Assembly (NCBI GenBank): GCA_965645245.1
Contig: OZ287069.1
Location: 744,001-808,000, forward strand
Direction: 5' to 3'
DNA from: Massalongia carnosa
Taxonomy: Eukaryota
DNA: 64,000 nucleotides
The position numbers and the translations under genes are program-made. The notes beneath the pieces were generated by a model. The model made no database searches, was not told where the DNA came from, and saw only the letters and a program-made list of their open reading frames with translations. Positions 2,651 to 27,645 of the stretch are shown piece by piece (position 1 is the stretch's first letter; each line of letters begins with the position of its first letter).

Positions 2651-2922
2651 ACCGATACCTTGCCTACGTACTCTGTACTCCCTACACTAAAATTTAGTCC
2701 AGCTTCTCATGATGTGTTCCAAAAAGCTAGGTACTCGTCATTCGAGCTTAACAAACTATCTTCTCTACCAGGAATCTGGGTTGCAATGATATGAACAGGG
2801 TCACGCCGCACAGATACTTCCCTCAATTAGGATAACTTTTATTTAAGCCGGCTAATTATGCCCATACAACAGAGGTATCAGTTTCTTGACTGTTCGTAAT
2901 CATACACAAACATCAAACCACA

Positions 2923-4870
2923 ATGGCCGATGCTGAGGATAGAGAGAAGTCGGAGAAGCTTGCGGCTGCAAAGAAGAGAGTATGAAGCAGCCTGCGTAGC
3001 TAGGTCCTTTACTGGGCAACAGTCCGAGCTGACTCATTTTTATCATAGTTTGAGCAGTTAAAGAAACAAAAAGACAAGAAGCAAAAGACCGAAGGTGCAA
3101 AAAAGAAAGATGAGCAGCATGGCTCCAAAGAAGAATCTGGTGAAGCTGGCGCATCTGAGGAAACTGAAGTTATAGCTGAACCGTCTCCTCCACGTCTAAA
3201 GGATGAACAAGTACATGACCCTTCTGAAGCTTCAAACCTGTCGTCAGGAACTACAGAAACCATAGAGTCTGGAGGGCCAGCCCAATCACCTATCAAACAC
3301 CCACACAACCGTCAGCCGTCCCTTAGCCTGCAGTCTCAGCTACGATCCTCATCGTTTCGGCGTACCTCGGTCTCACAAGTACCACTTTCACCTCCACTAA
3401 ACGGAAGCAAATCTCCTATCCTCCCGCTATTAAGTCCAGAGGGAGACTCTCTCAACGAGATCTACCGTAAACAAACCCTGCGACTCGAGGAACTGGAAAG
3501 AGAGAATCGAAGACTCACAAAAGATGCCCGAGAGGTTGAGACGCGGTGGAAAAAGGCTGAGGAAGAACTTGAAGAGTTGCGGGAGTCCAGTGGCGAGGTT
3601 GCGGAACTTAAGCTAAAAGCTGGAAGGGTTGATGCTAAGTCGGATGAAATCGAAAAGCTGGTATGTCAGCTACCCTACAGATGTTAGACATCAATACGTA
3701 TTAACCAATTATACCAAGAAAACCGAAAATACGTCTTTACAGCGTCAAATCGCTCAAATACAATCCCAATCCTCCAAGTCTACAAGGCACGCTTCGTCAC
3801 CAAGCCAAGTACATGGATTCTCTACCCCGGTATCTAAGCTTCAAGCTCAGCTTGATTCCAAAAACTTAGCAGTTGAATCAATGGAAATGGAAATATCAAC
3901 CCTCCGGTCTCAACTTGATAAAGCTACCTCTGCATACACATCACATCTTGACCAAGTGGCTGCCCTAGAAGAGAAGCTAGACAGGGCAGAACGCGCTGCA
4001 GGAGCTGCTCAGCGCGAGCTTCTAGATGTTAAGAAGAACCTTGATCGTGCCAGCGAAAAGGCAGTGAAGGAAGGTAGCCAGCTCACATCTGCTGAGACCA
4101 AGATCCGGAGCTTAGGACGCGAAGCTGACGAGTCGAAGAAGCTCGCAGAAGAGACTTTGAAGCGGGTAGAGACGCTAGAGAAGAAGCTTGCGGCTCTGAC
4201 GACCTTACATAAGGAATCTGATGGGCGACGACAAGCAGGAGAAAGGGACCGGGAAAAGCTTGAGAGAGATACTACAGAATTAAGGAAGCAGTTGGCTAGC
4301 GCTGAAAATGAAAATTCGCGCTTTCGAGAGGATAAGGAGCACTCGAAGAAAAGAGACTTCAGCGGTATCGACGATGACGGCGTGGATGAGCTGGAGGATG
4401 AGGAGCGTCGACGACTCGAAGATAAAGTTAGAGGGCTAGAGAGCGAGGTTTTTGATCTCAGGCGCGGAGTTTGGAGAGACCGAAGGAAGAACTTAAGCGG
4501 TACCGACGTCAATGATGGTCCCTCCAGCCCTGCTTCGAAATTCGACGATGTAGATCTTACCGGCGGCTCGACTTTATTTCGGAGACAAAGCCATTCCACC
4601 AACCGAAGCCAGGGATTCACGAACGTGCTTAGCAGCGGATTCAACGCCATTACCGGTGGGGGAAGACAGGAAAGCCAAGATCTACTCGATGGGCTAGATG
4701 ACGGCTTCGACGAAGATGCGTTTCGGCTGGCGCAGGAGGAGGAGTTACGGAAGCGTGTGGAGAGGGTACGCGAAGTGAAGAGGGCCTTGAAGGATTGGGA
4801 AGGTTGGAGGATGGATGTTGTGGATGCGAGGGTTGGCGGTGGAGGTATGGGGGAAATCTTTGATGTGTGA
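2923..4870 (+). CDS. Coiled-coil golgin, Bug1/GM130-like
   Basis: Exons 2923-2979, 3049-3660, 3719-4870 with GT..AG introns. N-terminus MADAEDREKSEKLAAAKKR, long heptad coiled coil, C-terminus LKDWEGWRMDVVDARVGGGGMGEIFDV. Confidence 0.75.
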
Positions 4871-7134: not shown

Positions 7135-8747
7135 TTCTAATTTATTTCGACGTATTTGGAGAACTATGTGCCAAGAGATTTACTCTACATCTACAGAGGA
7201 AATTCAACAATATCTTATACCCCGAACCGAACACCAATAAGAGCTTTTCATCCTTAGAGTCATGCATGGCTTGTGAGAGACGGCAATACACAGATGTCTC
7301 GGCATTCGTTTATTTGAAAATCATTCACTTAGCATCATAGTCATTGTTATCTTGTCTGCTTTCAATCGTCATTTTTAATGCCTATAGTTTGGTACCTAGC
7401 CTCACGGCTGACTCATAATCACAGTCACTTCAGTGTATATTTCTAGTTTACTAACCGTAGGCGTAAATGCTCAAGCTACTAAGGATATAATTAAAAAGAT
7501 TAATTTCAAAGACCTCTACAGGGTTCTTTTCGCTATCCGGATTCTTCAGTTCAAAACATACACCTGAGAGCGGTGGATGTAGACTTCTCCTATAGAATTG
7601 TCTTATCTTACTTTATTTTTGCAACCATCACCCTCGAAAGAGCGTGTCCCTATCAATGCCAAAGGATTTGTGTAACAAACTTCTTCAGTGTTCTATAAAC
7701 TAACAACTAAATATGGTTTCAGTCGGAATTTTCAGCCATATTCCACCAACGTCTTACAAATCCTTACCAAGCTTAGCAAGGATAAGAGCTACCCAGCGAA
7801 TCTAGGATAGGAAGATCCCTTATGATTCAGAATACAAGCCCAAGGAGTATAAAGAGTGGTCCTACATCATCTTTCCGGCCGCATGATAGATTAAAGTGTT
7901 CCAGGAGGATGTTATTTCGGTGAGCATTAGTTTCAGTCACTGGCTGTGCCGAAAAGGTGAACCACCGGAGAGGGTTGGTGCAGGCGCACAACTCTTGGTT
8001 GACATTTTCTTTGTTCTTTCTTGGTGATGTATGGACGCTAAGTGTTGAACCCCTCGTTCAGTTATGGGAACTATGCGTAGGTCGATTGATTGTTCTGCTT
8101 CTTTATGTTTCGCGGAGTATAGCCTAGAAAACATCTTGTGCATAGTATTGTCTCAGCATCCAGGGACCAGGCCCAGCTCTGGATCCACATATCTTCTGTT
8201 GGCACTTCGATCCGCTTCCTGGCCCATCCAGGTCTCTGGAACCCGATACAGCGCATAATCGTACGAACAAGGCGGTACTATAGATAGCTTGCCAAGCGGC
8301 GGCTATCCAGCTTAAACTATAGCTCTGGGTTTGAAAGATTTTGAGATTGGTTTCAAACATATCTACTCCGTTTGTGAAGGATTTCTTTGAAAAGAATGAT
8401 TTTTCACCGACTGGGCTGATCAAGTTGTAAGAAAAGTGAAAGAGACTACGTAAGAGGCAGGAGTAGATGGTGCATAGATAGGTTGAAGTAGGTTGAAGGG
8501 TAGGTAAATAGGCACCTAAGGAAGACAGGTAGATAGGGAGATAGTACAAAGTACTCATAGCCTCGTTCTCTGCCTGTAGGACCAGTCGGGCATAGGAATC
8601 ATTTACTCCGTACTTATAAGCTCTGAAGTTATTCAAAAGCCGGTAATCTTGTACCTCCCTAGATATCTAAACACTAAGCGACTAAACTCATTCAAGAAAA
8701 TTGCAGATAATCCCCTCTACCCAAGTCTCCACCCCACCAAACCCCAA

Positions 8748-18086: not shown

Positions 18087-20609
18087 TCAGGCGCTCATAC
18101 TCTCATACCCAGTACCGTTTGATCCGTCAGAAAGCCTTCGTTTAGCGTTGTCCATTGCCAATTTCTGCGCTGGAGCTATGGGAACTGTCTCTTGCATTTG
18201 ATATTCGAGCTTGGTATCCTCTGATGCCAATGCGGCCCCCCATTTGTTCAACCTTGACTTGATATAGCGTAGACAAGCTTCAAACACTCCGCTCTTCGGA
18301 TCCTTCTCAAGCGTCGATAGCAATCGGCATGCAGCGGCAAATCCTAGTAAGCTCACATCATTTATGTTGATGTCAACAGAAGTAAGGAGGTCCACCGCAT
18401 TAGCCATAGCTACTAGCTCGCTATTTAATGAACCTAGGGTAGCAGCGCACTGAACAGCAAATCTGACGTCCTTCCGGATACGTTCGGGGATGGATGAGTC
18501 GAAAAATACAGACGCGGTTGCCCGAGACGAAACGCTGCTAGTGCTAGATAATGGGAAGCGAGATAGGTCTTGCGAAAGTTTAGCGATATTAGCCTCACGA
18601 TCAGTCTCCAAGAATATAGCCTTTGCAGCTAAAGCTCGAGTGTATGCGCTAAATGCAGGAGGTGCGACTTGAAGAGCAAACTCCAAGTTCCTTTCGTCGC
18701 AGGGACCGAGCATTGCACCATGCTGGTACCAGTCGAGCAGTGCCTGGTGAAGAGAGAGACTTGATGCCCATGCTGCCAGGGCATCCAGAGGAGACCGGAT
18801 GGCATAATCCTCTACGATAATATCAGTTCCAAGATCTTCGCCTTTGGTATCCTCACGAGTCGGTCTATTCCAGGCTAATTGTAGGCGCGCTGCACAAGGA
18901 GATCAGTAAAAAGCTCATCAGAATCAAGCTGCAGGAGAGCGGTTAGATGCTGCAGTAAAGACTCTCTGTCGTCAGGCAAGAAGGAAACTATAGGCTTTGA
19001 CAGCCGATGCATTTCCTGTGCCTGCAACCACTGATGACGTGCAAGTCGAGCAGCGGCTTTGTGCAGCATGCACCAGATACTCTAACCTGATTTTGATGCC
19101 TCCCATAGTAGAATTCGAATGTGTAATGCCTTCAACATGAGCCGGGTTGGTGTGCTTGGTAGAGTTCCAGAAGCAAAGATAGTTAGCACAAGTCTGCTCT
19201 TGCTAACTTCAGAATCACCTCCGGTAAGTTGGGCATCAATAGCGATATCCCAGGCCCTAACTCTTGCAACCTCGTCCTCCTCGGTCTGATTCAATAGCCA
19301 TGCAAAACTCGACCAGCCGATGAACTGTCTCCCAATGTACCTCATAGCCTCCAGGTGCAGTGCTATAAGTTCAGGAAACATTCTGTGCCTTGGAAACCCA
19401 ACTGTTTGGATCGCTGTCAGCCATGCTTTTCGACGAACCTCGATTGGTGACGCTAATGATGGAGCTGCTGCAAGCATACTGTCTTTGCAACTTGTGGATG
19501 ATTTTGGCTTGGAACTGAAAAGGTACAGAAAAATTGCATATGCCAGTAACGAAAATACTAGGAGAATCTTTACCAAAAATGTGAAGGGAATTCCAGGAGT
19601 AAAAATGTTCCCCTTTAAACTCCTAATGGCATTTGCCACATTCAAAGTCGGCGGAGTAGATAGCGCAAAAAGACCTCGACCATCTGGATGGTCTCCATTT
19701 CCCCCTCTTTCACCAAAACCTTCCATAACTAGTAGTCCGGCTAAAGATCCTAGCATGAGCCTACCAAAAAGCTTACTGCGCCCAACCCCATGTTCTTTTG
19801 GGGATATTGAATCAGTCGAGTTAATATGTAACTGACCGTTATTATAAAGGTCTCCAGCGTAATGCTCATGGGGAATAGACGCTCGAAGAGCTTTCATGGC
19901 ATCGGGGACGCGAATCATTCCTTCGAGGTGAGTGGCAGCACGTGGAGAGTTGATTGTTGTAAGCAGGGTGTTTTCTGCTTGCTTTGATGATACTTCATCT
20001 GTTCGATCTTGCAACACCTTTCTTATAGCTCTTCCCGCTTCTCTGATGTTTTTCGAGAGCGGCGTACAACTTCGAAGATTGGCATTCTCCTCCTCTAAAC
20101 AAAGCGTTGCGGGTTTCAAGATATTGAATGTACTCAATAGCTTTTGTCATAATGGTGGCCTTATTGAGTTTAAAGGCGACCGATAGCCCTCCGAGATTAG
20201 CAGGCTCCTGGTAGTCACTGCGTAGACTTGGTACGCTCTCTCGCAGTGCAGCAATTTTCTCGTTTAAGTTCGTGCGATAACGCCGCTCGATCATAGTATG
20301 GCTTCGATTCGTTGTGGGTGGCTCTGTTGAATAGCGAATCTCCTTAGTAGATTCTTGATTTGTTCCAAGTGACAACTTTCGCTTCTTAGATGGTCCTTGA
20401 ACCTCGACAAACTCTGGCGGTAAGCGGTCTGAGATGCTTCTGGCCCTGCTAGTTAAAACAGAACCTTGCTTCGTGTATGTCTTACAAGGGGAATGTAATG
20501 ACTGCTGAGGGGCGAGCGCCTCAGCTGCTCCGTCCCATTCTTCGTTGGAAACCGGGCTTTCTCCGAACTTTGAGGCGAGAGCTGCTCCTAAGGGAACTAT
20601 CTGCTCCAT
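18087..20609 (-). pseudogene. srbA: SREBP (SrbA/Sre1-like) bHLH transcription factor, disrupted as assembled
   Basis: bHLH HTMIERRYRTNLNEKIAALRESVPSLR with the SREBP-specific Tyr, two transmembrane segments and a DUF2014-type C-terminus (AWDIAIDAQLTGGD..SKSRLVLT). Split by a +1 frameshift (~20100), an in-frame TAG (19082-19084) and a -1 frameshift (~18877). Confidence 0.8.
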
Positions 20610-20778
20610 TATCCAAAAGATGTGCGAATCAAAGCGTCAAAGACCAGATACGCACATCAATTGCGTGCGAGGAATAATTGAGATGGTTCTATGTCACGTG
20701 AGGCCCCTGAGTCAAAGTAAATTAAGAATCACCCTCTGAAAATTCTTTCCTCATCCACTTCTTCTCACTCGGCCTCAT

Positions 20779-20924
20779 CCATCTCACTGACTCGTCGTCG
20801 ACCCCACGTTGTCTCGGTGCCCCTACCTCGCTGTCAGTGCTTGCTGCTTTTCCCATCTCACTGACTCGTCGTCGACCTCACGTTGTCCTCGGTGCCCCTA
20901 CCTCGCTGTCGGTGCTTTTTCCCA
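20779..20924 (+). repeat. Tandem duplication (period 74 bp, two copies) in the retroelement 5' leader
   Basis: ccatctcactgactcgtcgtcgacc.cacgttgtc..ggtgcccctacctcgctgtc.gtgctt at 20779 and 20853; ends immediately before the gag ATG. Confidence 0.95.
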
Positions 20925-21938
20925 ATGACGAACACCCGTTCCCAAAGCACCCCGATGGACGACATAGTCCCCGACTCCCAGGAGATTGTCGGATTGACGC
21001 AGGCCCAGTCCAATCAAATCTTCGCCCTACAAAAGAAGAAAGCCGAGGCAGAAGCGAAGGCGGCCGAGGCTGAGGCCAGAATTGCCGAGTCCAAGGCATT
21101 GGTCGCCGAGAAGGAGGTGGAAAAAATGCAGCTAGAAATCGACTGCATGCGCCGAGAATCTGACGCCCGAATAGCGGCCGTCATTCCTGCTGGCAAGCCG
21201 AGTCGTGTCGTCGGCGATGACGACGAGGACCTAGGTGAGATCCCTCTCGAAGTAAGAAGTATAGCACCCCGTTTCGCGGGCCTACCACAGGACGAGATCA
21301 TCAAGATCTTTTCAAATAAATTCAAAGCCATCAACCTCTCCCGCCTCCGACACATGCACGGCATGCAATACGAGTCCTACAAGGATCAGGACCGCATCGG
21401 CATCGAAGACGGCGCCTTGAGGTTGAGAAAGGCATCCGGGACCTACAAAGATTTCGGAAAGACAGTTCATGACGTCTGGACCGAGAGCTTCATCAACTAC
21501 ACCTCGATCATGGTCAGTCTTTTCGGGAAATCGAGTCAACAGCTTCACGCCACCATGTCGGCATTCCACGGAAAAATCCTCACGCTGGCCAAGGTGTACG
21601 AGTGGCAGGAAGCAGTCCTCCCCCTCGCCATCGAAACCCACACTCACATCATCGCGTCTCAGCCATCCGACGCATCCCAATGGAAAATGCCCGACGAATT
21701 CCAAGCTCGATTCTGCACCCCCCTCACAGTCCTACGCCGTCGCCGCTCACGATCCCCGCCGTCCCGGCGACCGACCCCGAGAGGAGACAGGGCCGATAGG
21801 GCCGAGAAGGCAGCGGGGGAAATCTGCGACAAGTACAACAGCGGCACCTGCACCTGGCCGTCGTGCTACCGACAGCACAAATGTAAATCGTGCGGCGCGG
21901 CTGGGCATGGCCAGAAGACATGCCCAACGAAGAAATAG
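20925..21938 (+). CDS. Gag-like protein of the YR retrotransposon
   Basis: ATG at 20925, N-terminal coiled coil (KKKAEAEAKAAEAEARIAE), C-terminal zinc fingers CDKYNSGTCTWPSCYRQH and CKSCGAAGHGQKTC, ends TAG. Confidence 0.85.
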   Translation: MTNTRSQSTPMDDIVPDSQEIVGLTQAQSNQIFALQKKKAEAEAKAAEAEARIAESKALVAEKEVEKMQLEIDCMRRESDARIAAVIPAGKPSRVVGDDDEDLGEIPLEVRSIAPRFAGLPQDEIIKIFSNKFKAINLSRLRHMHGMQYESYKDQDRIGIEDGALRLRKASGTYKDFGKTVHDVWTESFINYTSIMVSLFGKSSQQLHATMSAFHGKILTLAKVYEWQEAVLPLAIETHTHIIASQPSDASQWKMPDEFQARFCTPLTVLRRRRSRSPPSRRPTPRGDRADRAEKAAGEICDKYNSGTCTWPSCYRQHKCKSCGAAGHGQKTCPTKK

Positions 21939-21983
21939 GGGGTTGGTGCAGGAGGCAGTAGAATAGCTTCAATAGCTGAATTC

Positions 21984-23691
21984 ATGACGTCCCATCCCTG
22001 CTTACCTGCACCAATCAGACCAAATACAATCCCTTCGTTTCAACTCGTAGACGCATCTCGTCAGCGTTTGAAAGACAGCCCATCTCCCCTCGTACCGTCC
22101 GCATGGGCAACTCTACTTCAAGAGTATCCGGGCCCCCTCCGAGTCCATCTGCCCATGATCCTTCGTTTCGGAGTACAAATCGGATACGAAGGCCCCACAG
22201 ACATCCTTCGGATCGAAAAAAATCTGACATCAGCGAATGAGGACCCGGAAACGATCGAGAATAAGCTCCAAGAGGACCTCAGGAAGGGCCGAGTCAGACG
22301 AATAGCCGCCCCGAGTCAGCCATTTGTGGCCTCCCCCCTCGGCTTGGTCCCGAAACATGACGGAGGATGGCGACGCATTCATCATCTGTCTCATCCCAAT
22401 CAAACATCAGTCAACGACAACATTCCAGAAGAGGCATCCAAATTACAATACGCCAGACTCGACGACATTATTCAATTGATTCTGTCAGCGGGCAAAGGTG
22501 CTGTCATAGTGAAAAGAGACGTCAAAGACGCCTTTCGAAACGTTCCCGTCGCACCTCATCATCAATGGCTTCTGGGTTTCGGATGGAATGACGAATTCTA
22601 CACCGAGACATGCCTTTCGTTCGGACTGTCGACGGCCCCGTTCATCTTCAATCTTTTTGCGGAAGGCTTTCATTGGATTTTGGAATCCTTTCTACAATGG
22701 AGATTACATCACTATCTAGACGACTTCGTTGCAATTTTCCCATCCGAGACATCGTCAGAACGATTGCACCAAGAAACAAAAGCCTACAACATTCTCACCG
22801 ACATTCTTGGCATCCCGAGAAACGACTCAAAAGACGCCGAGGGAACGACAGCGACAGTCTTCGGACTCGAGGTCGACACCATCAACAGTCTTATTCGTCT
22901 GCCAGCGGACAAGCTGGAAAAAGCGAGAATCATCACTACAAAGGCACTAAACGAGACGACAATCAGCCTCGGCGACATGCAGTCAATAGCGGGCTTCCTA
23001 AGCTTCTGCGCACAGGCAGTCAAATTGGGCCGAGTCTTCTTACGATTATTCTGGAATTTTATAGCCTCATTTCCCTCGGGCAGTCATCGTCGGGTCAAAA
23101 GAAGAATTCCCACATGGGTCAGACAGGATCTCATCTGGTGGAACAAACTTCTAGTGGACTTCAACGGTATTGTCTTCTTCGAGACGTCAACACGAGACAC
23201 GATCAAGGTGCATACGGATGCATGCCTCACGGGTCTCGGAGGCTATTTTCAACAAGACAACGAGCTCGTGAATCAAAAAAAAAAACGCATGTAGGGCCCG
23301 AGTCCTAGTCCTCAATCAGGAAGGATCACCGAGCATAAACGTCCGAGAAGTCGAAGCTATCCTTCTAATCCTTCAGAAATGGGCGCCGACATGGCGACAT
23401 CGACAGATCCTTGTCTTTACCGACAGCAACACAGCATACACAGGATTCACGAATCTAACCCTCAAGGGACCGGCCAACGCGCCTCTACGAGAAATACTGT
23501 CCATAGCTGCAAAGTGGGACATCGTACTACGTTGTCAATGGATCAGTGGCACTTCCAATGGACTAGCAGATGCCCTGTCACGTTTTGATGATGAAAGATT
23601 GGCTAACTTTTGCCCTCATTGGCAGAACCCATACAATTCGATGAACCTCCCTCCACCTACCTATCCTCCACACCAGGGTCAGCCCTGGTAA
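21984..23691 (+). CDS. Reverse transcriptase-RNase H (Pol), with a one-base frame break in an A11 run at 23275-23285
   Basis: SPLGLVPKHDGGWRRIHHLS, KRDVKDAFR, LSFGLSTAP, HYLDDF, then RNase H VHTDAC. It continues in the +1 frame as INVREVEAI..VFTDSN..WISGTSNGLADALSR to TAA 23689-23691. Confidence 0.9.
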
Positions 23692-24773
23692 AACGTCTCG
23701 TCTGGCACGGACACTCGGCGGACACGAGAAAAGGGTACGGGACGGCGATCGACTCATACGAGGCATTCTGCGCGACGACGGGACGCACGTCGTGGCCTGC
23801 AACAACCGAGTCCCTCGAGGAATGGCTAGCCGGTCGACTATACGGGGGCGGCACACCCAAGCAGGGAAAGATAAAACCAGAGACGGCAGCGAGCTACCTC
23901 GCCGGCCTCAGATCATACCATGTAGACCGAGGATACGGCCTCACCCCATTCGAGGGGCCGAGACTTCAATTGATGCTGAAAGGGGGAAAAAGGATCTTTT
24001 CTCAGACAAAAAGAAGACGCCTACCCATTTCAAAAGAATTACTGACAAAAATCACCAGTATTCCCGCTCATTCGGCCGAAGACCTCAACATCGACGCGAC
24101 ATTCAAAGTTGCATGGGCAGGGTTCCTCAGACTCGGGGAAATCACCTACACTGTCGCCGATCGTAAGAAGACATCTTTTCAGAGATTGAAACCTACACGA
24201 GGTGACATCTCATTCGCCGAGAACGATCAATACGCGACATTACGTCTCAAAAGAAGCAAAACAGACACAAATCACTCAGGAGTTCAGATAGTGCTGGCAG
24301 CGACCAATGAGAGCACTTGCCCCGTGACAGCACTACGGCGTCTTTTCAGAAATGATCCTCAGCCATCTACATCCCCGCTTTTTCGTCTCGGCACCGCATT
24401 CACCAGAGCCTCCGTCATAGCATCCCTGAAAAAGAGACTGATAGCCGTCGGCATCAACGACTCGGCATACTCGGGACACAGCTTCAGAAAAGGAGCAGCA
24501 CAACACGCCGCCGACCACGGGATGCTGGATGAGAGTATTCAGAGACTCGGAAGATGGTCATCAAACGCGTTTCAGCTATACTTTCAGACGTCCCAGGCCT
24601 CACTATTCAATTTGAACCTCAGTTTTCAAAAAGGCATCCCTCTAGCAGTCCCACGTGCTGTCGTCGCCGAGACGAATCCTACAAACTCCTACCCCTACTC
24701 AATTGGGCATTCCATTGGGCGTACAGGTCAACCAGGGCATCGATCCGGAGCGCCGCCGGGCACCTCCATCTAG
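23610..24773 (+). CDS. Tyrosine recombinase (phage-integrase family) of the retroelement
   Basis: Catalytic motifs GFLRLGE (R), LKRSKTD (K), SGHSFRKGAA (HxxR), LGRW and FQLY (Y). No ATG upstream of the N-terminal domain; the ORF-track start is TTG. Confidence 0.92.
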   Translation: MPSLAEPIQFDEPPSTYLSSTPGSALVKRLVWHGHSADTRKGYGTAIDSYEAFCATTGRTSWPATTESLEEWLAGRLYGGGTPKQGKIKPETAASYLAGLRSYHVDRGYGLTPFEGPRLQLMLKGGKRIFSQTKRRRLPISKELLTKITSIPAHSAEDLNIDATFKVAWAGFLRLGEITYTVADRKKTSFQRLKPTRGDISFAENDQYATLRLKRSKTDTNHSGVQIVLAATNESTCPVTALRRLFRNDPQPSTSPLFRLGTAFTRASVIASLKKRLIAVGINDSAYSGHSFRKGAAQHAADHGMLDESIQRLGRWSSNAFQLYFQTSQASLFNLNLSFQKGIPLAVPRAVVAETNPTNSYPYSIGHSIGRTGQPGHRSGAPPGTSI

Positions 24774-24931
24774 ATCATCGCCGTCGGGCACTGCCGTCGG
24801 GCATCATCTATCGGATCGTTGAGCGTCAGCAGACGCCTCGGGCCTAGAAGATGAGGTTCTCACCTCAGCACCGACCCCGAGTCACGTGCCTAGGCCTGCC
24901 CGGGCTGACCTGTGTCGTTCCCATGCCCAAT
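24702..24931 (+). other. Predicted multibranched secondary structure at the retroelement 3' end
   Basis: Nested complementary segments read by hand: 24702-24710/24923-24931, 24717-24739/24897-24920, 24741-24747/24812-24818, 24823-24827/24832-24836, 24841-24847/24890-24896, 24852-24857/24862-24867, 24868-24871/24886-24889. Confidence 0.7.
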
Positions 24932-25306
24932 CAAATTCAAGCATTCAAATCAATTCATCCAATTAAAAGCCCCCCCAGCGCAAGCGAAGGTAACGGCACC
25001 GATAAGGGTCATAGAACGTAGCGTTATTGACTAATGCAGGAGACACTCTTCATTACACCCCATCTTTAATATTCTTCATATACCTCTAGTAGTCGAAAGA
25101 AATGTCCTTGAAACTGCGAGGTTCATACTTCAGCAATTTACCCTTCTTTCAAATCCCACTCTGATAAAGTATCTGTAGATATATGTTGACTCTCATAATC
25201 CGCAGCAGGTGATCCAAGGCCCAACATTAAATCGAGTTACGTACCTCAAATTAGATGGTTTTTAGGTGTAGAGATGTATCGAAACATCAACCTCGACATT
25301 CCTGGG

Positions 25307-27645
25307 CTAATTCCATTTCTCGTCCAAGTCTGGTCTTTTCCTTACTAAGACCTCCCCCACTGGGTCACCCTTTCCTTTCAAAACCTCCCATTGCCCAATT
25401 CCCAATTCTTTCGGCGCCTTTTTGACGCCTCGACCCCCACCGCCAATGATCAGATTACCTGGCCTGTAGGTTTCGTCCGCTTCCATACGTCTGATGGCGG
25501 AGTTATGAATCTTAGCGTTGTGGGGAATATCTCTCGGCTCGCCCATCGGTAGTCTACACAGCGTGGCGTTTCAGGGTCAGCTAGCATACTTGAAAGGTGT
25601 GATCATAGCCTCTGGTCAAGATCAGCAGAGGCTCTCCACTTACGGGAAGGTAATAGCCCGCCAGGAGCCATCAGGTTGGAGATCCATTCTACGGAAAGGT
25701 AAATATTCCATCGTCTTCCAGGAGAGGACTGACATCGCTGGCAGTCCGTTTTTAAATTCCAGACAGTCGTGGAGCATCCCTTTAGTTGCCGACTTGTACA
25801 TGCATCTGTGGAATTCGGATTGCTTTGGCTCTTCGGGCTTCATTCCAGGTGCCCATCCTGGTTGTGGGGTTTCGGACTTAGGGCTTTCGTAGATGTTGGG
25901 GTTAGAAGAGCTCGTAACCTGAACTTCTGGGATCCCGGGATCCCGTGCTCGGGTCGATTCATAGGAATCAGACCAATCGTTGTATTTGTCATCGCAGCAT
26001 TTGAGCCGGATCATCTTTTCACGATCAAAGTCAAGGCCTGCTCTTTGAGCTTCTCTTACCATCCACACCAAAGGTGCATGGCTCAGAGCGAATTCCTCAT
26101 TTGTGGATAAAGGCCATCCTCCACCCAAGTCCGCATGACATCCGGGGAACCAAAGTTCCTCAATATCTTGCTCGGCGGCCTCATCGGCATCGGCTTCATC
26201 CTCCAGGGGCCTTGGAGGTGCGATAGAAAGTTGTGAGGTGTCAGAGTTGATGGAAGACGCATCTCCATCTTCCCCGTATGCTAGACTCAACGTTCTCTCT
26301 CGACTCTTCGCTGGAGAGCTCTGACGAGGCGCCAGCCGGCCTTCTTCATCTGGAACACTCAATCGAGAGTTGAGCGGTTTGTTTTTTTCCGGAGTAGGCC
26401 GAGCCTGGCTTGGTCTACGAAAGCGATCAGTAGTGCTGGTAGCATTTCCACGGTCTGGGGTTCGACCGCCATTTCTCTGGTGCTGTTCCTGGTTTCCATC
26501 CTGATGGTGCTTATGATGGTGACGATGAGTCTTGGTCGGTTTCGATTCTCCAAGCAAATCTTGTCGGAATTTCGCTCTGCGCTCGTCGATGCTCACAGCA
26601 TGCCGGATCACCCGTGCTGAGCTCCTCACGCTATATGGAAATTTGCTCCTCTGCATCCAGGCATTTTCAAATCGAGGAACGCTGTTGACTGATCTGACGG
26701 TTAGGTGGACCTGGTGCTACGAAAGAACATGGCATACCAGTATCAAAAAGCCCTATGAATCGAATTCTCCTAACAGGGCGAGAAAATGTATCACCTTTAG
26801 GTATCAGATTAGTCTTTTAAGTTGATGCAGTGGCCTTGAAAGATGCTTACGGAACGCCTGCATGAAAGTAAACATAGTCTTTTTCTTCTTCGCTTCCTCT
26901 TCCGTTCCGTCTTGTCTTTCCTGCCACTGAGAGAAAGCCTTCCACGCAAATCTCGCCATTTCTTCATTTCCGGCGCTGAGCAAACCGACATGATCCAGCA
27001 TCTCTGCCAGAAACCGCGCTACATAAGCACCTCGGCTGAATCCAAATAAAAAGATATCATCATCGTGGTAAGTCGCCATCAAAAATTTATACGCTGTTCC
27101 TTGCTCAGCTCAAGGGCTTCCCCAACTCTCGATCGCGGCATCATACCTCCCATCACATGTTCATCTAAAGATGTTCCGACGGCCGAATCTTTGGCTTTCT
27201 GATACCATGAGTTGAATCGTGCGGCCACACTCGTGTGGGAGATGGACCTTGTGTTAACGTAGGTCCCAATGCCCGGCTGTAAGAATGAGATGCAATGCTG
27301 GTCAATAAAGCGTCATTATATTTACCTGGTAGTAATGCTTATCGAAGCCGTTGTTTCTATCTAGCATTCGATATATCTTTAGTATATTGCTATCCGCATC
27401 GGTCCCTATTCAACTGTTTAGAACCGCTCCATAATGTTTGTTTTTTTATACAAGATCGCTAATACCTTGGAACTTGTTGCCTGTCCCATCGAAGCAGAGA
27501 ATAATCTTTATCACTGGATCAGTCTTTGCTCGCGATGAAACCCGTCCTGTGACCGATATACCTTTTTGCGAGGGCGAAACGGCCCATAAGCTTGGTTCGT
27601 TGCCCCTCCCCCAAGGTTCTCATGGCTCTCGCGTTGGGCTTGCAT
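25307..27645 (-). CDS. DUF2235 (Tle1-like alpha/beta hydrolase) protein
   Basis: Multi-exon: RPRKK / IILCFDGTGNKF, IFLFGFSRGAYVARFLAEML, RHAVSIDERRAKF, ELWFPGCHADLGGG, IHNSAIRRM. Confidence 0.88.

Follow-up and report, generated by a model that had tools for sequence, protein, structure and literature searches.

A predicted stem-closed domain beside a putative palindromic recombination core in a unit-length Ngaro-type retrotransposon copy

The locus and its features

The stretch of DNA analyzed here (the window) comprises 64,000 nucleotides (nt) of contig OZ287069.1 from the Massalongia carnosa assembly GCA_965645245.1 (positions 744,001 to 808,000, forward strand) and holds one copy (self-BLAST) of a retrotransposon that we class as Ngaro-type by its predicted gene content (gag, reverse transcriptase [RT]-RNase H and tyrosine recombinase, no methyltransferase). 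An earlier reading of the same DNA (the original prediction) had proposed that a large folded 3′ domain stands in place of the terminal repeats of classical DIRS and Ngaro elements. Comparison with relatives suggests that this domain is closed by a base helix common to many distantly related families, lies beside a putative recombination core and partners the repeats rather than replacing them. The features of the locus, including open reading frames (ORFs) and the 5′ untranslated region (UTR), are as follows.

20679-25016, plus strand: unit-length Ngaro-type retrotransposon copy, A-ORFs-B form, 4338 bp, delimited by contig breakpoints of other organisms
20679-20693, plus strand: right half of the putative palindromic recombination core (spacer TGAGATGG at 20679-20686, right arm TTCTATG at 20687-20693)
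20694-20701, plus strand: TCACGTGA palindrome directly 3′ of the core, with a TA-rich stretch AGTAAATTAAG ~15 nt further
20779-20917, plus strand: tandem 74-75-nt repeat of the 5′ UTR (20779-20842 and 20853-20917; 95-97% identity)
20925-21938, plus strand: gag-like ORF with a coiled-coil region and a CCHC zinc knuckle (both by eye, from the translation), ending in TAG
21939-23294, plus strand: RT ORF in the frame of gag (RVT_1, E = 1.4e-12, 48.2 bits)
23281-23658, plus strand: RNase H-like part in the +1 frame relative to RT (RVT_3, E = 0.0026; RNase_H, E = 0.2; both below cut-off)
23607-24773, plus strand: tyrosine recombinase ORF, conserved as protein to about residue 345 (~24640), its tail entering the fold
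24702-24931, no strand assigned: stem-closed folded domain, two base helices closing three arms (interior arms are prediction only)
24932-25009, plus strand: A-rich spacer CAAATTCAAGC...AATTAAAAG between fold and core, read from the sequence, with AATTAAAAG at 24963-24971
25010-25016, plus strand: left core arm CATAGAA, the final bases of the element and the exact reverse complement of 20687-20693

Element ends and a palindromic core

To map the ends, contigs from four public runs, representing four differently coded organisms, were compared with 20300-25500. Contig pieces of X9 and X10 start to match at 20679, their sequence upstream of this point being unlike that of the window; at the right end an X10 piece stops at 25016 and X4 is unlike from 25017 (a loose end). 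Summed contig depth of X4 was ~200-500 within the element versus 1-5 in the flanks, which shows that the element is repeated and gives no copy number. Joined together, the two ends read CATAGAA-TGAGATGG-TTCTATG, a short palindrome of 22 bp interrupted by a spacer.

Relatives were collected from metagenome contigs, which were searched using a recombinase alignment; this gave 79 loci (protein identity 29-52%) that were grouped into 31 families by the DNA following the recombinase gene. A scan of IMG/VR for further relatives returned 54 pattern matches, none of which was confirmed. In many families a palindrome of the same type occurs 23-70 nt 3′ of the fold, as in the following loci.

L007, L009 and L023: ATAGA-N9-TCTAT
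L002: CATAGA-N9-TCTATG
L020: GCATTAGA-N9-TCTAATGC
L053: as L020, with arms of 9 nt
L078: GTGATCAAA-N9-TTTGATCAC
L029: ATAGA-N8-TCTAT

Arms of 5 bases on their own are at chance level within 200 nt, but arms of 8 to 9 bases, together with the recurring place and motif, are not. Three families besides that of the window place the element end at the boundary between left arm and spacer. In family 0 the B1/A2 junction and the outer ends (A and B being the repeat modules of Ngaro elements) all read ...AATAGAT / GGACATGTCTAT..., the junction being ATAGAT/GGACATG-TCTAT; in the L007 family the matching of both L050 and L034 ends at L007 position 2956, just past AATAGAT; and the match of L040 to L078 ends at position 984, which is the end of the L078 left arm. 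These coinciding boundaries point to a putative tyrosine-recombinase core-type site, located 23-79 nt from the 3′ arm of the fold. The cores of loxP, FRT and lambda att likewise consist of a pair of short inverted arms separated by a 6-9-bp spacer, and strands are exchanged where arm and spacer meet. The putative window-type core is similar in layout; its arms are only 5-9 bp and the target has no matching spacer.

A CACGTG-type motif occurs after the core in L007, L009, L013, L017 and L078, at the place equivalent to that of TCACGTGA in the window, and together TCACGTGA and the TA-rich box may form a promoter straddling the recombination site. On the other side of the core, the A-rich spacer might contain a polyadenylation signal or a CCAAT box.

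A stem-closed domain 3′ of the recombinase gene

In the minimum-free-energy fold, 24702-24709 and 24924-24931 form an outer helix ATTGGGCA/TGCCCAAT, within which ~24716-24739 pairs with 24897-24922 in another long helix. Inside these, the first arm (CGATCC/GGATCG) encloses a tandem GCCGTCGGGCA, the second is a hairpin (GCGTC/GACGC) and the third a three-way junction (GGCCTAG/CTAGGCC). All helices listed in the original prediction (outer helix, CGATCCG arm, GCGTC hairpin, three-way junction) were thus recovered, as was its GC-GCAA-GC tetraloop in the form of a 2-bp hairpin, although nothing beyond the fold supports the latter. Folding energies were compared with those of 200 dinucleotide-preserving shuffles per stretch, a check that the original prediction had itself proposed and that came out in its favor: 24702-24995 folded at −112.5 kcal/mol (shuffles −91.85 ± 4.86; z = −4.25), and 24702-24931 alone, as plus-strand RNA, at −109 kcal/mol (shuffles −85.14 ± 4.64; z = −5.14), with 0 of 200 shuffles as good in either case. 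A caveat on the strength of the fold comes from a sliding scan that ignored the phase of the domain (230-nt segments, step of 50, 25 shuffles), in which the best overlapping segment reached only z = −3.46; similar scores were found elsewhere in the element, at its 5′ end (20579-20908, z = −3.8 to −5.2) and, likewise structured, at the gag-pol junction (21829-22158, z = −3.1 to −3.6).

As originally predicted, the 5′ arm overlaps the last codons of the recombinase, the ORF of which reaches 24773; the part of the ORF tail that lies within the fold showed no conservation at the protein level. The tails of several relatives' recombinase ORFs (alignment columns 400-482) spell LG/IG..S..(L/F)G(Q/R)TGQ, a peptide that is only apparently conserved because it translates the conserved TTGGGC...GGGC..ACAGG nucleotides of the arm.

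Searches for known RNA classes were negative: no match at E ≤ 1 to any of 4227 Rfam families was found on either strand of 20000-26000, and ARAGORN reported no tRNA or tmRNA gene in 20500-25200, where a larger tRNA mimic would escape detection. A check for 5′-3′ cyclization showed the 5′ UTR to be complementary to the fold at chance level only (best match 9 nt with E = 0.28, or 15 nt at 87%). The sequence TGGGCACAGG was considered as a tRNA primer-binding site and rejected, the implied tRNA 3′ end having no discriminator base.

Conservation of the base helix across families

The base helix of the window (ATTGGGCAT/ATGCCCAAT plus TGGGCGTACAGG/CCTGTGTCGTTCCCA) is of a TTGGGCACAGG/CCTGTGCCCAA type that, to judge from predicted folds and recurring motifs, is common to many distantly related families just 3′ of the recombinase gene. 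Unconstrained folding of the 450 nt 3′ of the recombinase gene identified a GGGCACAG/CTGTGCCC-like closing helix in 13 family representatives (window, L053, L040, L002, L011, L013, L028, L038, L044, L062, L067, L071 and L073), and the helix was recognized by eye in L007, L017, L025 and L057. Among the 27 families with at least 250 nt after the recombinase, TGGGCACAG (≤1 mismatch) occurred within 260 nt of the gene in 8, each time with CTGTGCCC 50-330 nt further on, and its density was 0.82/kb after the recombinase versus 0.047/kb in the rest of the loci (17-fold). A strict GGGCA/TGCCC helix finder was dropped as too strict, having caught 14 of 79 loci, mainly through chance pairs.

A MAFFT alignment of 21 domains gave a consensus starting TTGGGCACAG, with no interior nucleotides conserved between families; over the whole domains, alignment succeeded for the 5′ arms and failed for the 3′ arms. 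Because the 3′ arms were unaligned, co-variation was assessed by arm-swap energies and not by pair counts. With 16 representatives (two of one family group), duplexes of each locus's own 5′ and 3′ arms averaged −21.65 kcal/mol versus −17.35 ± 0.86 for permuted partners, and none of 20000 permutations was as good. The own partner ranked first in L040, L044, L062, L071 and L074. Within subfamilies, double changes kept 3 of 30 predicted pairs in the alignment of L071, L065, L070 and L074 (2 pairs each break in one sequence) and 4 of 27 in that of L053, L020, L022 and L038. A control with an automatic domain picker, free of hand-picking, gave a median z of −2.74 for post-recombinase DNA (10 of 21 below −3) versus −1.42 for coding DNA (6 of 38 below −3; one-sided Mann-Whitney p = 0.0098). 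Variation among the four runs was uninformative here, the 0 differences in 24650-25016 standing against ~2 expected from the 22 variant places in 20854-24644.

Between the arms the interiors are non-homologous, consisting of long imperfect hairpins or sets of small ones; those of L017, L028, L044 and L073 have 26-38 paired positions. On the outside, a pyrimidine-rich tract lies upstream of the 5′ arm, and in most families a CAAT-A-rich motif comes immediately after the 3′ arm (CAATACAAAAG, CAAATACAAAAAC, CAATATAAAG; in the window CAATCAAATTC...AATTAAAAG).

The fold and the split direct repeats

The window copy has neither inverted terminal repeats (ITRs) with an internal complementary region (ICR), as in DIRS elements, nor split direct repeats, which agrees with the original prediction. 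Apart from the 5′-UTR tandem repeat, self-BLAST of 20600-25100 revealed no long repeats, terminal or internal; when 20679-20935 was compared with 24640-25016 by short-word BLAST, no match exceeded 9 nt (best E = 0.28); and the inverted match between the element ends is 7 nt only.

Split direct repeats do occur in relatives. L029 has textbook split repeats in the order A1-ORFs-B1-A2-B2 (A1 2916-3023 = A2 7324-7431; B1 7178-7330 = B2 7506-7658), and L007, L020 and L002 combine the same closing helix with direct repeats of 98-110 nt, ~330-380 nt apart. In all three of the latter, the B-type repeat begins 9-20 nt 3′ of the 5′ arm, such that the 5′ arm and pyrimidine tract are single-copy while the interior, 3′ arm and CAAT-A-rich motif lie inside B. 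Since relatives have helix and repeats together and B starts just past the 5′ arm, the view that the fold stands “in place of” the classical repeats had to be given up; by these boundaries we take the fold to be B plus one arm outside it, a partner of the repeats and no replacement for them. When the region upstream of the second B was searched for a substitute arm (500 shuffles), scores of 1/500 for L020 B1, 20/500 for L020 B2 and 10/500 for L007 X2 (the last two weak) were obtained, with nothing in L002 or L029, and this test was not used as evidence.

The original prediction had named, as the outcome that would undo it, ordinary split repeats in full-length relatives, with the window copy merely truncated. 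The first half of this holds, as relatives do have the repeats, but the copy does not appear to be randomly truncated: it ends in the palindromic core, its ends are shared by contigs of three other organisms, and the same form is seen in 6 of 16 copies of family 0. In that family a second B copy (filter ≥150 nt) was present in 10 of 16, and the remaining 6 (L033, L036, L041, L046, L063 and L075) end right after B1. For these reasons we regard the window copy as a unit-length A-ORFs-B form, which could have been resolved from a circle or from a B-A-B copy with two core sites.

In L007 the first 1234 nt of the contig (1-5750) equal the last 1234 nt (99.9% identity; period 4515 nt), and the contig is best read as a head-to-tail tandem or circular form of the element. 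Its X2/Y2 junction corresponds to the X1-core-Y1 region less ~61 nt, core included, and in the 5′ UTR of the L007 family a second, core-deleted copy of the B-A block takes the place of the tandem repeat.

Strand evidence and alternative explanations

The original prediction held that G-U pairs favor folding of the plus-strand RNA. This was not borne out, as the plus-strand fold of the window has 2 G-U pairs among 83, and the fold of the reverse complement is at least equally strong (−116.5 kcal/mol, z = −5.72 with RNA parameters; z = −5.19 for the complementary strand as single-stranded DNA with DNA parameters), with the qualification that the domain coordinates for the reverse-complement, arm-swap and permutation tests were picked from the folds, which inflates the z-scores and counts among the points against a selected single-stranded structure. 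RNA, first-strand complementary DNA (cDNA) and a DNA-level palindrome are all compatible with the strand data, and no strand is favored.

Several further observations weigh on the same side. G-U pairs show no strand asymmetry (66 of 765 on the plus strand versus 68 of 777 on the minus strand), the internal G-U to A-C mismatches stand at 33:12 and 32:11 on plus and minus strands, respectively, and the absent strand bias fits a DNA-level palindrome as well as an RNA. The arm-swap ranks of L007 (14th of 16) and of the window (8th of 16) were poor, which is expected where the arms equal the shared consensus. Instead of a hairpin domain, L005, L014, L016 and L061 have arrays of 25-90-nt tandem repeats at the same place (first 450 nt), and the closing helix of family 0 differs in sequence. 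The interior arms of the window have no comparative support, as no metagenome locus could be aligned to them, and the conserved arm sequence could be a protein-binding site instead of a helix. Finally, none of the 79 metagenome loci has a poly(A) contig end, and none of the 24 listed runs is recorded as RNA.

One alternative is an explanation at the DNA level, in which the arms would be inverted binding sites for an element-encoded or host protein and would form an accessory or promoter-proximal block of an attP-like region, acting in the double-stranded circle or the integrated copy in synapsis, directionality or upstream activation. Equal folding of both strands without G-U bias suits such a role, as do an arm sequence far better conserved than the remaining non-coding region and the closeness of the 3′ arm to a core flanked by CAAT, CACGTG and TA-rich motifs. 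Yet the complementarity extends beyond two sites, with long non-homologous imperfect hairpins between the arms in every family, and compensating interior changes are seen in two subfamilies, neither of which binding sites need; the arms are also unlike the core arms of the same element. We consider this explanation unlikely, while giving it a substantial minority share.

Somewhat more doubtful is a role in choosing the 3′ end, in which the fold would govern whether the A-rich processing signal downstream of it is used. Because the B repeat does not include the 5′ arm, helix closure is possible for B1 alone, and the cell would read through one B and end in the other. The CAAT-A-rich motif directly after the 3′ arm in most families, the pyrimidine-rich tract before the 5′ arm and the position of that arm outside the repeat in three of three families all speak for this arrangement, whose asymmetry is weakened by the possible pairing of B2 with sequence upstream of it in L020 and L007 (the 20 and 10 of 500 shuffles given above); moreover, the window copy has a single B and poly(A) ends are missing from the 79 loci.

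It is improbable, in our judgment, that the domain has no selected function and consists of tolerated hairpin-forming UTR duplications (e.g., from reverse-transcription snap-back) with a merely inherited arm motif. Interior lengths that vary freely (~80-300 nt), tandem small hairpins (L040 versus L078; GCCGTCGGGCA twice in the window), plain tandem arrays in several families and the lack of strand bias would all be expected of such DNA, but a base helix with co-varying arms has been kept across families whose recombinases are only 30-50% identical, and DNA after the recombinase gene shows more structure than the coding controls do. A self-cleaving ribozyme trimming the transcript at the element end, as the original prediction had entertained, is very hard to credit, having a multi-helix junction shape alone in its favor against the negative Rfam search, the conservation between families of the base helix only, with no interior nucleotides or core, and a fold that stops 85 nt short of the element end.

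A proposed role for the B module

As the best explanation, to which we assign about even odds (a probability of roughly 0.5), the window contains a unit-length Ngaro-type copy whose B module has 24702-24931 as its body, and this domain acts in cis as a structure of a single-stranded replication intermediate. Recombination within a short palindromic core would have inserted the element, leaving one half of that site as its first 15 bases and the other half as its last 7. The B module would be the non-coding block from the recombinase gene to the core, comparable in position to the U3 of a long terminal repeat (LTR), and would consist of a stem-closed domain with a shared base helix and a family-specific hairpin interior. 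As the two strands fold equally, candidates for this intermediate are genomic RNA and first-strand cDNA, alone or together. There, the domain would flag the 3′ module to proteins that the element encodes, a candidate step being the start of reverse transcription through fold-back or recognition, and an alternative candidate being strand transfer and closure of a circle that recreates the core. Of the roles suggested in the original prediction, priming, packaging or circularization may apply.

We favor a single-stranded intermediate because the complementarity spans a non-homologous interior with compensating changes. LTR boundaries mark start, stop or transfer points of synthesis, and the repeat boundary beside the 5′ arm resembles, by analogy, such a mark. 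Elements of this kind also make single-stranded cDNA, and a 3′ hairpin has already been proposed as a primer in DIRS-1: Malicki et al. (2020, PMC7192593) describe the DIRS-1 reverse-transcription primer as unknown and credit Poulter and Goodwin with pointing out a 3′ hairpin capable of priming.

A more speculative reading, with little probability in our estimate, makes the repeat-less unit-length copies the working form of the family and not dead ends, propagated by a circle cycle like that of Cryptons. Here the recombinase would excise and reinsert double-stranded circles via the palindromic core; only in a circle or tandem would the B fold and CAAT motif be set upstream of the CACGTG/TA-rich start region; more than one round of transcription on the circle would yield terminally redundant RNA, as in pararetroviruses; and the fold, present on both strands, would be a signal that starts or closes reverse transcription. 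If true, split direct repeats would be dispensable and Ngaro elements would be linked mechanistically to Cryptons.

Genes of the element and its neighborhood

At E ≤ 1e-3, 339 homologues of the recombinase were found, most of them 45-67% identical and all unnamed or labeled “integrase” or “hypothetical.” R175, R316, W317 and Y325 were present in 32 of 32 aligned sequences and the HSFR box (H291, R294) in at least 90%; these we take to be the catalytic residues of the recombinase. The Pfam Phage_integrase match was weak (E = 0.0054, 17 bits versus a cut-off of 27.1). No Pfam match was obtained for the gag-like ORF, nor one to a methyltransferase, for which there is no room, as the RNase H frame runs to 23658 and overlaps the recombinase start at 23607.

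A single TAG (21936-21938) parts gag from pol in one frame and is followed by GGGGTTGGTGCAGGAGGC, with 21829-22158 structured. Gammaretroviral gag-pol is expressed by stop-codon readthrough with a downstream structure, and the arrangement of TAG and downstream structure in the window looks like such a readthrough signal. Further along, the RT frame is closed by a stop at 23294, and the +1 frame carries the RNase H-like part; 4 nt at 23275 are absent from the organism D consensus. The window copy appears to be frameshifted near 23275 and probably could not supply its own RNase H. The organism D consensus also lacks 1 + 17 nt inside the 5′-UTR tandem repeat.

Upstream of the element, an ORF for a bHLH-type transcription factor (HTMIERRYRTNLNEKIAALRESVPSL) lies on the minus strand at 19995-20636 and begins ~40-70 nt from the element 5′ end, such that the element occupies the upstream region of this gene.

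Relation to known elements and significance

In gene order (gag, RT-RNase H, tyrosine recombinase) and in having no methyltransferase, protease or DDE integrase, the element matches Ngaro elements (DrNgaro1, fungal clades and Cafeteria), from which the window copy differs by the absence of split direct repeats. The founding papers by Goodwin and Poulter (2004) and Poulter and Goodwin (2005) may describe some of the features reported here. The A1-ORFs-B1-A2-B2 repeats are described in PMC3783388, PMC4157794 and PMC8547959, and L029 agrees with them. To DIRS-1 of Dictyostelium the element is alike in being a tyrosine-recombinase retroelement with a non-coding 3′ part; in DIRS-1 this part contains sequence required for restoring the circle junction, and the intermediates are single-stranded cDNA (PMC7192593). 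The element is unlike DIRS-1 in having no ITRs, no end-complementary ICR and no methyltransferase, and the DIRS-1 hairpin measures ~14 nt versus the 230-nt domain of the window. Isolated AB repeats are reported for Cafeteria Ngaro elements by Hackl et al. (PMC8547959). Such solo AB forms, like solo LTRs, are likewise reduced forms found beside full ones, and the window form is their complement, with all ORFs, one A and one B.

Extended or branched terminal hairpins serve export, priming or hairpin transfer in the constitutive transport element of Mason-Pfizer monkey virus, the T-shaped ITR of adeno-associated virus and the Tf1 self-primer, and the adeno-associated virus ITR folds on both strands. 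With these the window fold shares a functional analogy only, and no sequence or family relation.

Within the open literature searched, including the available text of PMC13465315 and PMC2632668 and otherwise judged by titles and the opening of abstracts, no description of the B fold, the palindromic core at the B/A junction or the regular unit-length form was found, nor any experimental work on Ngaro elements. For the questions of how tyrosine-recombinase retrotransposons prime reverse transcription, rebuild their ends and choose recombination sites, this locus and its relatives offer a putative palindromic core for cutting and joining, an adjacent conserved base helix and a B repeat that regularly starts just past the 5′ arm. 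Unit-length repeat-less copies are, on this evidence, a regular form, which annotation pipelines demanding split direct repeats would call truncated, the term applied to one Aspergillus-group element in PMC3783388.

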